Shown here one piece after another: positions 12,961 through 14,519 of a stretch of DNA of 14,780 bases. Both the position numbers and the translations under genes were made by a program. Within the stretch, counting starts at the first letter, position 1. Each line of letters opens with the position of its first letter. Source of the stretch: a virus (Duplodnaviria > Heunggongvirae > Uroviricota > Caudoviricetes); IMG/VR virus record IMGVR_UViG_2706794665_000005; one strand, given 5' to 3'. The notes beneath the pieces are model-generated. The model saw nothing but the letters and a program-made list of their open reading frames with translations, was not told the origin of the DNA and searched no databases.

Positions 12961-13064
12961 CAATGTAGTCCGGTTTCTTCCACCATCGCACCGGACAGGC
13001 GACTATGAGGGGACAACGCCGCGCTCCGTTAACGCGGTAAACCCCGGTGTGTATCGTTTTTGAT

Positions 13065-13129
13065 TATCCCCGCACACTCGCGCAGAGGAGTCTCCCGGTC
13101 GGGCTGCGGTCTCTGTTAATGCGGGGATA
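13065..13129. repeat. Inverted repeat tatccccgca ... tgcggggata (10-bp arms, 45-nt spacer) between Rz and cos
   Basis: Arms at 13065-13074 and 13120-13129 are exact reverse complements; no U-tract follows on either strand, so this is not a canonical terminator. Confidence 0.4.
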
Positions 13130-13157
13130 CGGCGACAATACCGCGCATCAGCAAAAC

Positions 13158-13625
13158 TTATTTCAGGCACTGAGTGCGGATATATTCCTGCGCCACTTCC
13201 AGCTGCTTCTGCATCAGCATCAACCGCTCTCTGAGAGTGAAATAATCCCGTTCAGCGGTGTCTGCCAGTCGGGGGCCGGTTGCATTATCCACGCCGGAGG
13301 TGGTGGGGGCTTCACGCACGGTACCGGGGCAGGTGGCGTTGATCCGCAGGCGCTTACGACCAGCGGCAACGTCAGCGCGCAGAGTTTCATTTTCAGCTCT
13401 CGCATCGGCTAATTCCCTCGAGTATCTGGCATCAAGTGCAGCAACATCACGCTGGCGCTGCTGCATATCAGTAATGGTTGCATTTGCCTGCTCCAGCTCA
13501 CTGACTTTTTTATCGCGCTGCTCTTTGTAGGTTATGGCGTTATCACGGTAATGATTCAGCCCCAGACTAAGCGCACCACAGGCCACCAGCAGGGCAATGA
13601 TGACCACGCACAGTACGCGGTTCAT
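13158..13625 (-). CDS. Rz: Spanin inner-membrane subunit Rz (i-spanin)
   Basis: 155-aa ORF MNRVLCVVIIALLVACGALSLGLNHYRDNAITYKEQRDKK...; N-terminal TMD plus coiled-coil region; lambda Rz-like. Confidence 0.92.
   Translation of the reverse strand: MNRVLCVVIIALLVACGALSLGLNHYRDNAITYKEQRDKKVSELEQANATITDMQQRQRDVAALDARYSRELADARAENETLRADVAAGRKRLRINATCPGTVREAPTTSGVDNATGPRLADTAERDYFTLRERLMLMQKQLEVAQEYIRTQCLK
13220..13405 (-). CDS. Rz1: Spanin outer-membrane lipoprotein Rz1 (o-spanin), embedded in the +1 frame of Rz
   Basis: 61-aa ORF MRELKMKLCALTLPLVVSACGSTPPAPVPCVKPPPPPAWIMQPAPDWQTPLNGIISLSESG; lipobox VSAC, proline-rich, lambda Rz1-like, wholly inside Rz. Confidence 0.88.
   Translation of the reverse strand: MRELKMKLCALTLPLVVSACGSTPPAPVPCVKPPPPPAWIMQPAPDWQTPLNGIISLSESG
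13583..13590 (-). other. Chi octamer 5'-GCTGGTGG-3' on the minus strand
   Basis: Plus ccaccagc, exact; inside the Rz N-terminal codons (LLVA). Confidence 0.6.
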
Positions 13626-13626
13626 T

Positions 13627-13764
13627 TCACCACCAGCGTATCTGACCGATGAAATAACCGGAGGCCATAATCACAAACACCAGCCAGATAAGAATGAACT
13701 TCCAGGTGGATAATTTTTCAGCCATCACTCGAATCTCCCGAATCAGTTTGCTAAAATCAAACAC
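13627..13764 (-). CDS. Small hypothetical single-pass membrane protein (45 aa from GTG; 32 aa if ATG at 13725)
   Basis: Hand translation MFDFSKLIREIRVMAEKLSTWKFILIWLVFVIMASGYFIGQIRWW*. AAGGAG SD 5 nt before GTG at 13762-13764; stop TGA ends 1 nt before the Rz ATG. One hydrophobic stretch of about 20 residues. Below the ORF-track size cutoff; no homolog recognised. Confidence 0.35.
   Translation of the reverse strand: MFDFSKLIREIRVMAEKLSTWKFILIWLVFVIMASGYFIGQIRWW
13630..13637 (-). other. Chi octamer 5'-GCTGGTGG-3' on the minus strand
   Basis: Plus ccaccagc, exact; last codons (RWW) of the small ORF, just upstream of the Rz start. Confidence 0.6.
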
Positions 13765-13800
13765 ACTTTCTCCTTTGACTTTTCCGGAGTCAGGAAACAC

Positions 13801-13834
13801 AAAACCCCGCTTGGTGCCAACAAACGGGGTTTTT
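13801..13834. terminator. GC-rich hairpin flanked by T-tracts on both strands (bidirectional intrinsic-terminator-like) between R and the small ORF
   Basis: aaaaccccg (13801-13809) pairs with cggggtttt (13825-13833); loop contains the sub-palindrome ttggtgccaa. U-tract follows the stem on the plus strand (tttttactttt) and on the minus strand (UUUUGUGUUU). Confidence 0.45.
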
Positions 13835-13922
13835 ACTTTTATTCACTTACGTTTCGCCACTTCGCAGGATTTCATGTTATCCGCCCGCGTGGCCATGCCT
13901 TATTTTCAGCAAAATATTCTGC

Positions 13923-14456
13923 TTATCTGTCGATACCCCAGCACGCCAGCGCGCTCTCCTGGTCACGCCGTGAGACCTGTCCATAGCAGTTATTTGAACG
14001 AATACGGCAGTCTCTGCCACCGTCCTTAATCCACCAGCGAATCGCCTCACATGCTCCCCTGCGATCGCCAGCATTAATTCGTCTGTAAAACGTCGACGGG
14101 AAACACTTACCGGGACCAATGTTGTACGGACAGAATGACGCGATCCCCGCTTTCTGGGGTTCACTCAATGGCACTCTGATGTTTTTCTCCACCCATGCCA
14201 GCGCCTTATCACGCTCAATGGCGTTAACCCGGTCGCATTTTTCCTTCGACAACTTCATGCCCGGAACGACAGGTTTGCCATCCACCAGGATGGCACCGCG
14301 GCAGATGGTCCAGATACCCGCGCCATCACGGTATGCCGTGGTGTGGTTACCTTCCTTTTCATCCAGAAACTGGTCGAGAATGTCAGGCGCAGGCGCACCA
14401 GCGGCAATCAGTGCCAGAACGGCAGCCGACAGGCCGTATCTGATTTTTGCGTTCAT
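13923..14456 (-). CDS. R: SAR (signal-anchor-release) endolysin, T4-lysozyme-like muramidase (GH24)
   Basis: 177-aa ORF MNAKIRYGLSAAVLALIAAGAPAPDILDQFLDEKEGNHTTAYRDGAGIWTICRG.... Gly/Ala-rich weakly hydrophobic N-terminal segment (residues about 8-24) typical of a SAR domain. E35/D44/T50 spacing matches the catalytic triad of phage 21 R-type lysozymes; resembles E. coli cryptic-prophage RrrQ-type lysozymes from memory. Confidence 0.9.
   Translation of the reverse strand: MNAKIRYGLSAAVLALIAAGAPAPDILDQFLDEKEGNHTTAYRDGAGIWTICRGAILVDGKPVVPGMKLSKEKCDRVNAIERDKALAWVEKNIRVPLSEPQKAGIASFCPYNIGPGKCFPSTFYRRINAGDRRGACEAIRWWIKDGGRDCRIRSNNCYGQVSRRDQESALACWGIDR
14031..14038 (-). other. Chi octamer 5'-GCTGGTGG-3' on the minus strand
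   Basis: Plus ccaccagc, exact; inside R (codons RWW of ...EAIRWWIKDGG...). Confidence 0.6.
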
Positions 14457-14519
14457 GGATATTTATCAGGATTTATCGGTTTCTGCCCACGGACAGGTTT
14501 ATCTGTTCCGGTCAGTGAC

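Follow-up and report, generated by a model that had tools for sequence, protein, structure and literature searches.

A compact mobile cassette of phage late operons combines a conserved membrane-protein gene with a predicted antisense RNA

Introduction

The genes for endolysin R and the i-spanin Rz overlap by 4 nt in the K-12 prophages DLP12 and Qin. In the lambdoid prophage studied here, 297 nt lie between the R stop codon and the Rz start codon, which raises the question of what this DNA encodes and what it does there. The sequence analyzed, called the window below, is the whole 14,780-nucleotide stretch of IMG/VR record IMGVR_UViG_2706794665_000005, in which the late genes are found on the minus strand in the order R, 297-nt spacer, Rz, Nu1, terminase A. 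A first-pass annotation, made from the letters alone, had described an R/Rz separation of about 300 bp, a GC-rich hairpin with T-runs on both strands, and an open reading frame (ORF) of 45 amino acids (aa) with the Shine-Dalgarno (SD) sequence AAGGAG, one predicted transmembrane (TM) helix and a stop codon 1 nt before Rz. Each of these features was present, the hairpin at 13801–13833. Since the homologous genes overlap in DLP12 and Qin, the spacer is an insertion relative to phages with abutting R and Rz.

Here, we report that positions ~13627–13846 of the window are one copy of a compact, ~240-bp mobile cassette that shifts between unrelated operon slots. We give somewhat better than an even chance to the reading that the cassette has two products, a membrane peptide and a ~80-nt cis-antisense RNA over its start site, in the architecture of a type I toxin-antitoxin locus. 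The features of the peptide gene are as follows.

13627–13764, minus strand: gene for the 45-aa membrane protein (MFDFSKLIREIRVMAEKLSTWKFILIWLVFVIMASGYFIGQIRWW), stop codon included, with a GTG start at 13764 and a TGA stop at 13629–13627, which leaves a single base before the Rz ATG (13625)
13770–13775, minus strand: SD sequence AAGGAG, 5 nt before the GTG, in a conserved purine block of the leader alignment
13723–13725, minus strand: Met14 codon, a speculative candidate internal start (32-aa form), with GGAG at ~13735–13738, 9 nt upstream

Results

The 45-aa ORF is a conserved gene

The 45-aa ORF is a real gene under purifying selection, because its sequence matches a family profile, its length is fixed and its dN/dS is low. 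Residues 1–45 match positions 1–45 of the profile of PHROG 6632, a phage protein family of 'function unknown', with an E-value of 1.2e-29. The product is exactly 45 aa long in 42 of the 47 distinct nucleotide alleles, and the median Nei-Gojobori dN/dS over 81 allele pairs is 0.17. Homologues were collected by tblastn, by a word-indexed search and by an exhaustive hidden Markov model (HMM) search; a scan of viral contigs gave 80 near-identical E. coli loci and was rerun with a divergent alignment. The conservation that the first-pass annotation had proposed to look for with such searches was found. Protein homologues occur in Salmonella, Citrobacter, Enterobacter, Yersinia, Edwardsiella, Providencia, Pantoea, Brenneria, Sodalis, Pseudomonas and Azoarcus, and those of the last two genera have 37–48% identity and the same architecture. 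The family is small, with 41 representatives at 50% identity, all of 32–86 aa, in a search of 1.84 billion proteins. The identical protein is present on at least 1000 public contigs, where it is named hypothetical or 'phage protein' throughout, and PGAP annotates the ORF in some genomes and skips it in others. This inconsistency and the shortness of the ORF could be taken to mean that it is a chance frame beside an ordinary terminator. The fixed length, the dN/dS, the PHROG match and the distant homologues refute this view, whose probability is practically nil.

The 45-aa peptide had no match in Pfam, NCBIfam or PADLOC searches, and none to a holin family in Pfam or PHROG. It has a single predicted TM helix at residues ~22–41, with a Kyte-Doolittle 19-mer maximum of 2.13 at residues 24–42, preceded by an amphipathic N-terminal helix at residues 3–18 (hydrophobic moment 0.63) and followed by the short C-terminal tail Q-I-R-W-W. 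The charge distribution predicts an N-in topology. In its 45 aa and its TM helix, a form conserved across the family, it agrees with the small (below 60 aa), hydrophobic peptides expected of type I systems. All members of the main clade start with GTG or TTG, and the first 13 codons are rich in rare codons, namely ATA, CGG/AGG, CGA (in 42/42) and CTA.

Other frames at this locus were considered as well. A 57-aa frame from the GTG at 13800 was rejected, as it is not conserved and reads through the GC-rich hairpin (HP1 below). Some Stx2a-phage records carry a 72-aa frame (LC567829.1, BCI49733.1; locus L002, 1606–1824), which was likewise rejected; its extension is not conserved, and it starts upstream of HP1 and runs through the hairpin. 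This annotation is probably an over-call, and in the window a 1-nt indel in the A-run shifts that frame. Inside the gene, Met14 is invariant across the family, including Pseudomonas and Azoarcus, and a GGAG-like block upstream of it is conserved; GAG is the only codon used at position 10 (42/42), and G is the only third base of codon 9. A 32-aa isoform starting from Met14, akin to the dual start of holin and antiholin, is therefore possible, if speculative. In some databases 32-aa versions of the protein are present.

The gene and its leader form a mobile cassette

For the comparison of leaders, the 130 nt upstream of the ORF were read in every locus, in 17 loci and then in 28 leaders. The same leader and ORF are found together in Escherichia, Salmonella, Citrobacter, Edwardsiella, Yersinia, Providencia, Pantoea, Brenneria, Sodalis, Pseudomonas and Azoarcus. 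Reading towards the start codon, each has an A-run, HP1 (a GC hairpin), the T-run TTTcTGTTTC and then HP2, a smaller hairpin with the SD sequence as its 3' arm. In the window, these elements lie at the following positions.

13834–13846: A-run of the late strand, conserved in every cassette context; in the predicted plus-strand RNA it would form the U-tract (UUUUUACUUUUAU)
13801–13833, both strands: HP1, a GC-rich hairpin with a 13-pair stem, resembling a bidirectional intrinsic terminator in the terminator scan
13769–13797, both strands: HP2, in which UUUCCU pairs with AGGAGA on the mRNA and buries the SD sequence; it would also be the 5' stem-loop of the antisense RNA

The left junction of the cassette is at ~13846/13847 (...gtaagtgaataaaag, then taaaaaccccg). 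That the A-run belongs to the cassette would be explained by its role as U-tract of the predicted antisense RNA. At the other end, the homology between cassette copies stops at the stop codon of the ORF. The copies were found in the following genomic contexts.

Lysis genes: a PF00959, GH108 or GH19 endolysin or a P22-type antirepressor upstream, and Rz or another small TM protein downstream; in a further case, a 138-aa protein without a Pfam match upstream and Rz downstream
Rac-SA53/SEN34-type myoviral tails: baseplate spike gpV upstream and a W-like protein downstream
Tail genes: tail K (NlpC/P60 + JAB) upstream and no gene called downstream in L145
Tail genes: no annotated gene upstream and a J-like host-specificity protein downstream (L098, L168)
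Podovirus-type genes: a T7 gp14-like internal-virion gene, upstream in L099 and two genes downstream in L185/L186
Head genes: Mu-like
Pseudomonas phage: a moron-rich tail region
Toxin-antitoxin island: stand-alone among ParE, RelB-YafQ and HicAB genes

In most of the embedded contexts, the next gene on the same strand begins 1–20 nt past the stop codon. The first-pass annotation had taken the 1-nt gap to Rz to imply translational coupling to the spanin. Because the cassette is packed this tightly against whatever gene follows, the gap is generic and does not point to the spanin in particular. The range of contexts bears equally on the idea of a dedicated lysis component, which might be an antiholin, a timing modifier, a trigger of SAR (signal-anchor-release) endolysin release or an Rz-coupled spanin partner. 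The cassette does lie between endolysin and spanin genes here, with only that single nucleotide before Rz; elsewhere it follows endolysins of three families and the 138-aa pre-Rz protein. Furthermore, R is of the SAR type, and the possible dual start recalls holin/antiholin pairs. However, the same cassette with the same leader stands in baseplate V/W, tail K/J, Mu-like head and T7 gp14-like operons and in a toxin-antitoxin island, it is missing from many related lysis cassettes, and the peptide matches no holin family. A lysis-specific role is therefore unlikely, and we hold this explanation to be very improbable. Among the functions suggested by the first-pass annotation, an antiholin or lysis-timing modifier thus loses ground given the non-lysis contexts, and a membrane toxin fits the evidence best.

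The cassette is common. The 351-bp region matches 2062 of 5426 complete E. coli genomes, with at least 80% of the query covered in 871, and it also occurs in H-19B and in Stx1a, Stx2a and Stx2c phages. The surrounding DNA is ~94% identical in H-19B and many Stx1/Stx2 phages. A peptide 88% identical to the E. coli Rac-SA53 form was found in Actinobacillus phage vB_Apl-pPE4 (PP818812.1; A. pleuropneumoniae); this high identity could be due to a recent transfer or to a mis-assigned host.

Such abundance would suit a moron of the lysogenic-conversion type, whose peptide, expressed from the prophage, would benefit the host, for instance by superinfection exclusion or envelope modification. The cassette is additional DNA, its slot has other contents in other phages, and small inner-membrane proteins are common exclusion factors. 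Against this, no sense-strand promoter was found in the scan of 13100–14500 or within the cassette, and in the tail contexts the upstream gene stops only ~20 nt before HP1. Besides, the GTG/TTG start, the rare codons, the buried SD sequence and the upstream terminator all suppress expression, the opposite of what a constitutively useful lysogen product would need. We consider a conversion moron improbable. Of the 'moron-like insertion' of the first-pass annotation, the extra DNA with a small membrane-protein gene stands; the sense promoter is missing, and the hairpin lies upstream of the ORF. A sense promoter was also sought between HP1 and the ORF and, as the 'TATAAA' of some lineages, just upstream of HP1; it was rejected, as it is not conserved and the tail contexts leave no room for it. 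An integron-attC-like recombination site, judged on anatomy only, was also rejected, with no core-site pattern and no integrase nearby.

A sense promoter for the peptide gene was found in the stand-alone units of one locus only. This locus (L177, 1090–2385) lies inside a type II toxin-antitoxin gene cluster and contains tandem ~700-nt units whose 380-nt leaders are almost the same. In this leader, a sigma-70-like promoter (TTTACA-17-TATCAT) ~350 nt upstream is accompanied by two terminator-like hairpins and HP1; this upstream promoter and terminator may belong to another small RNA gene. The two units carry different small TM ORFs. Tandem duplicates among toxin-antitoxin genes are consistent with a resemblance to paralogous type I loci. 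The second L177 ORF (MNSTDAGIVARRLANAALILAAG...AIRWW) is similar to one in Pseudomonas phage YMC11/02/R656 (L008, 2740–2856), where that ORF stands after the family member.

HP1 and HP2 are conserved structures

Both hairpins are conserved structures. On the minus strand, HP1 is followed by TTTTGTGTTTCC, and on the plus strand by TTTTTACTTTTATT; the folding z-scores are -3.0 and -2.7. Covariation was examined in an alignment of 25 non-redundant sequences. In HP1, both sides have changed in 7 of 9 pairs and 98% of the cells are paired. For HP1 and HP2 together, 92.4% of the cells are paired, and both sides have changed in 11 of 19 pairs (35 cells). None of 500 column shuffles reached the observed values, and sliding the partners by 1–3 columns reduced pairing to 46–61%. 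The HP2 stem of the window (UUUCCU/AGGAGA plus GACU/AGUC) is replaced in other clades by CCUUG/CAAGG, CCUG/CAGG, CGUUA/UAACG or CCCCAUG/CAUGAGG with pairing kept, and nearly all members have a 7-nt loop and involve the SD sequence.

In the sense orientation, the strand test gave 24 A.C/C.A cells versus 4 G.U cells, or 14 versus 4 after removal of three mis-registered E. coli rows; an A.C cell would be a G.U pair in an antisense RNA. The antisense fold is clearly more stable in Pseudomonas, Azoarcus, L103, L180, L182 and L185. For example, it reaches -22.2 versus -12.1 kcal/mol for HP1 of Azoarcus and -46.9 versus -34.4 kcal/mol for the leader of L182. Hairpin energy alone was discarded as a criterion of strand, being inconclusive in the enterobacterial members and informative in the distant clades only. 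The hairpins may be used by both RNAs, as complementary stem-loops like those of kissing-type antisense pairs. HP1 is proposed to be the terminator of the antisense RNA; on the minus strand, it would weaken late read-through as well.

An antisense promoter is predicted inside the coding sequence

The codons at the 5' end of the gene have a second pattern of conservation, which read on the plus strand resembles a promoter that fires backwards through the leader. The predicted elements are listed below.

13749–13757, plus strand: predicted extended -10 element TGCTAAAAT, the reverse complement of codons 3–6 (GAT TTT AGC A)
13729–13734, plus strand: weak -35-like hexamer TCGAAT, 17 nt upstream of the -10, the reverse complement of codons 11–12, which are synonymously invariant
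13763–13843, plus strand: predicted antisense RNA of ~80 nt, with ends inferred from the geometry of promoter and terminator

Among 28 non-redundant leaders, the TG is present in 28/28. The -10 has T, A and A in all 28 at its first three positions, A in 22, T in 4 and G in 2 at the fourth, and A and T in all 28 at the last two. Minor synonymous codons make up 1/269 (0.4%) at codons 3–6 and 10–12 (GAT TTT AGC AAA, GAG TTG CGA), compared with 37/121 (31%) at codons 7–9, which form the 17-nt promoter spacer, and 247/681 (36%) at codons 19–43. Read antisense, the two frozen blocks are the extended TG -10 and the -35-like hexamer (TCGCAA/TCGAAT). The hexamer agrees with the consensus at 3/6 positions, so the promoter would rely on its extended -10.

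The extended -10 motif TGnTAnnnT is kept in 5 of 6 distant HP1-bearing members despite differing amino acids. The members in which the motif outlasts amino acid replacement at the homologous position are these, with their residues and antisense motifs.

Azoarcus: residues NFIK, antisense motif TGATAAAAT
L177: residues NSSK, antisense motif TGCTAGAAT
L180: residues ILSI, antisense motif TGATAGGAT
L185: residues DYIK, antisense motif TGATATAAT
L182: residues ISR, antisense motif TGCTAATGT
L183: residues LSR, antisense motif TGCTAAGAT

The Arg codons AGA (L182) and AGG (L183) are the sole choices that keep the antisense TG. L184, the sole member without HP1, is also without the antisense -10 motif. 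Conservation of the promoter motif thus goes with that of HP1.

The predicted RNA would start at ~13763–13766, ~7 nt past the -10, and terminate at the HP1 U-tract at ~13838–13845. From its 5' end, it would cover the complement of the start codon and the anti-SD CUCCUU, followed by HP2 and then HP1 with the U-tract. It would pair perfectly with the start codon, SD sequence and leader of the peptide mRNA. Its predicted fold has -23.2 kcal/mol and a z-score of -3.0. HP1 is best explained as the putative terminator of an antisense RNA with a promoter inside the ORF, rather than as a terminator of R. The Rfam scan of the whole window at gathering thresholds gave no family, and permissive scans of three cassette versions gave only sub-threshold, terminator-shaped hits (rimP leader, sar, ohsC), the best scores being 17–20 bits for ohsC, with a gathering threshold of 50, and 19–24 bits for sar, with a threshold of 43.

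Several points weigh against an antisense RNA and a type I reading. The RNA is predicted, as are its transcription start site and 3' end; its putative promoter has a weak -35 hexamer and was not flagged in the generic scan of 13100–14500. The L174 clade retains HP1 yet has a plain TATGAT with no TG. The sense folds of the enterobacterial members are equal or slightly more stable, which leaves the strand evidence mixed. Alternatively, the invariance of the A/T-rich codons beside the weak start codon could stem from the demands of translation initiation, and the conservation of codons 9–14 from an internal SD sequence and a start at Met14. In addition, a classical type I toxin gene has its own promoter, which this peptide gene does not have in the window and most other contexts, and no known type I toxin family was matched in Pfam, NCBIfam or PADLOC.

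Some of these points would be accounted for if the peptide were an ordinary late accessory membrane protein with a purely cis-acting leader and no functional antisense RNA. HP1 would then be a partial terminator or a 3' stabilizer of the upstream message, while HP2 would keep the amount of peptide low, as a translational attenuator or thermosensor. Translation initiation, the internal start or both would account for the conserved 5' codons. The usable HP1 U-tract on the late strand, the SD sequence buried by HP2 on the mRNA, the enterobacterial sense folds, the weak -35 missed by the scan and the GGAG 9 nt before the invariant Met14 all agree with this explanation. It leaves unexplained that the A-run travels with the cassette, that TGnTAnnnT survives amino acid change and dictates an AGR codon for Arg, that spacer codons 7–9 are free while the hexamer codons are frozen, that motif and HP1 are lost jointly in L184, and that the wobble pairs of distant clades prefer the opposite strand. 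Moreover, if sense transcription were efficiently terminated within a baseplate or tail operon, the essential genes beyond that point would be deprived of it. We regard the purely cis-acting leader as rather unlikely.

Neighboring genes and the R/Rz slot

The cassette of the window is flanked by the following genes.

13923–14456, minus strand: endolysin R, 177 aa, PF00959 lysozyme (E = 1.4e-23), the upstream neighbor, outside the cassette
13847–13922, minus strand: flank 3' of R, common to prophages with another filling in the R/Rz slot
13158–13625, minus strand: Rz (i-spanin), PF03245 (E = 8e-49), the downstream neighbor of the cassette
13220–13405, minus strand: Rz1, embedded in Rz, PF06085 (E = 8e-21)

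The N-terminus of R (MNAKIRYGLSAAVLALIAAGAPAP) is of the hydrophobic signal-anchor-release type, like that of phage 21 R, which places R in a cassette of the pinholin/SAR-endolysin type. Release of SAR-type endolysins depends on membrane depolarization. In related loci, a holin gene is already encoded upstream.

Sakai Sp10 shares the flank of R up to 'gtaagtgaataaag' and continues with an antirepressor module; this point of divergence is the left junction of the cassette in the E. coli lysis context. Salmonella phage SPN3UB shares the flank letters 'gccacgcgggcggataac'. In SPN3UB, an unannotated small hydrophobic ORF (MSKRDVSALCFLMAAAVAISGNDGWGWLIFAGIIIL; L006, ~1757–1867) overlaps the lysozyme stop upstream of the cassette. 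The cassette is absent from the R/Rz slots of Sakai Sp10 (L172, 756–1471) and Sp15 (L173, 1249–1964), which are filled by a P22-type antirepressor and another TM ORF of 48 aa (MGWLMISDKLITLVKSLCVLVGISFLVMLVAIFFSTAWRVLTLSGLVG). The latter is unrelated to the 45-aa peptide, also abuts Rz, and its module has the left junction 'gtaagtgaataaa(a)g' as found for the cassette. The R/Rz site has the look of a recombination hot spot at which small membrane proteins are gained again and again.

Further downstream, window positions 12969–13158 are 94% identical over 190 nt to the EcOnc11/HnrS segment of Sakai Sp10. An hnrS homologue, ~550 bp from the cassette, is probably located at ~13036–13084 on the plus strand, antisense to the late genes.

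Discussion

Function of the cassette

The two-product reading introduced above brings together the frozen codons, the hairpins and the A-run in one scheme. We infer three of its steps from sequence, namely transcription of the plus-strand RNA, repression of the peptide by this RNA, and membrane toxicity of the peptide; toxicity is suggested by the small size, the hydrophobicity and the multilayer repression. The predicted curbs on expression are a non-ATG start, rare codons, an SD sequence buried in HP2, HP1 upstream and the lack of an own sense promoter. Since the compact 240-bp form has no sense promoter, the peptide would be transcribed only by late-operon read-through. In the lysogen, read-through transcripts of the peptide gene would be blocked by HP1, by HP2 and by pairing with the antisense RNA. 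Upon induction, Q-antiterminated late transcription would pass HP1 and out-titrate the antisense RNA. The peptide would then be made alongside R and Rz, insert into the inner membrane and most likely perturb it. Its effect could be a depolarization that assists lysis, R being of the SAR type, or it could be addiction or abortive infection.

More broadly, we tentatively propose, as a possibility and no stronger, a hitherto unrecognized family of type I-like plug-in cassettes, horizontally mobile and self-silencing. Each would consist of a promoterless gene for a membrane-toxic peptide, an antisense-RNA gene and a bidirectional terminator, and would insert co-directionally into the lysis, tail, baseplate or head operons of the late region in unrelated temperate phages. 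Under this proposal, the peptide would appear only when late transcription overwhelms the RNA, and would serve the collapse of the membrane at the end of infection or act as a device for prophage addiction or abortive infection.

The cassette is widespread in E. coli genomes and Shiga-toxin (Stx) phages, yet its protein is annotated as hypothetical at best. If the antisense-RNA model is true, the cassette is a new type I-like toxin/RNA family, type I-like modules can be promoterless passengers of phage late operons, and the locus is a testable example of a prophage that silences a late membrane-active peptide in the lysogen. In Stx phages, a peptide affecting membrane integrity or lysis timing could influence toxin release. 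The pattern found here, with synonymously frozen hexamer codons, variable spacer codons and a motif that outlasts residue change, is a reusable signature for hidden antisense promoters in small ORFs.

Comparison with known systems

Literature searches by accession and topic found no description of the peptide or the cassette. Systems of similar anatomy are compared below. The moron concept is said to go back to Juhala et al. in 2000, with HK97 gp15 and lambda bor/lom as examples. A classical moron is flanked by a promoter of its own on the upstream side and a terminator on the downstream side, and the lysogen expresses it. As in lambdoid morons, the cassette is extra DNA between genes that are adjacent in relatives, at a junction that is filled differently. 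Unlike them, it has its terminator upstream and no sense promoter, and its sole promoter-like element faces backwards.

In the case of holin/antiholin dual starts (lambda S105/S107, phage 21 S68/S71), the likeness lies in a small membrane protein with two possible starts, here GTG1 and Met14. The peptide of the cassette differs in having one TM helix and a 20-residue cytoplasmic helix and in matching no holin family. The cassette also occurs outside lysis cassettes, and in related loci it coexists with a separate holin gene.

Antisense small RNAs (sRNAs) of prophage late regions (HnrS/EcOnc10-12, EcOnc22-24) are short, terminator-ended, located in intergenic gaps and expressed in the lysogen (PMC13502914, PMC4104026). 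HnrS (EcOnc11) is a 66-nt Hfq-bound sRNA that represses hha and is encoded just downstream of Rz (PMC13502914). This precedent shows that antisense sRNA genes expressed in the lysogen exist in the gaps of lambdoid late operons. They differ from the cassette RNA in sequence and position, act in trans on host mRNAs and overlap no conserved peptide gene. Several sRNAs were considered as identical with this element and rejected on position: svsR lies at the 3' end of cI, the Pas sRNAs upstream of the holin, HnrS/EcOnc10-12 downstream of Rz, and EcOnc22-24 in the tail I/J gap, with unrelated sequence. In the 240-nt I/J gap of Sakai Sp15 (L181, 1192–1431), the Hfq-bound antisense sRNA EcOnc22 (~85 nt) is accompanied by a hairpin and a 39-aa non-membrane ORF, the same theme as the cassette in unrelated sequence.

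A phage antisense RNA over a ribosome-binding site is known from P22, where sar, of ~70 nt, is complementary to the ribosome-binding site of ant, which must stay off in the lysogen. The arrangement predicted here is alike in this respect to sar/ant and to antisense locks of the P1 c4 type. The target differs, being a membrane peptide and not an antirepressor, and the cassette is a mobile unit outside the immunity region. The sub-threshold Rfam hits to sar, which occur on both strands, probably reflect terminator shape only.

The nearest parallel is with hok/sok and other type I loci. The differences are that the peptide is unrelated to known toxin families and the RNA to any Rfam antitoxin RNA, and that the peptide gene is mostly promoterless and lies co-directionally in phage late operons. 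Furthermore, the terminator of the RNA is bidirectional and faces incoming late transcription, and both the RNA and the toxicity are predicted here. The peptide is alike in being a hydrophobic single-TM product of less than 60 aa, as are Hok, Ldr, TisB, Ibs and ZorO, and one cassette lineage (L177) has tandem paralogous units among toxin-antitoxin genes as type I loci do. The predicted geometry is alike as well. A Sok-type antisense RNA starts in or next to the 5' end of the toxin ORF and runs upstream over the initiation region, and the short cis-antisense RNA predicted here would likewise run from the 5' end of the ORF, over the initiation region, to an intrinsic terminator.

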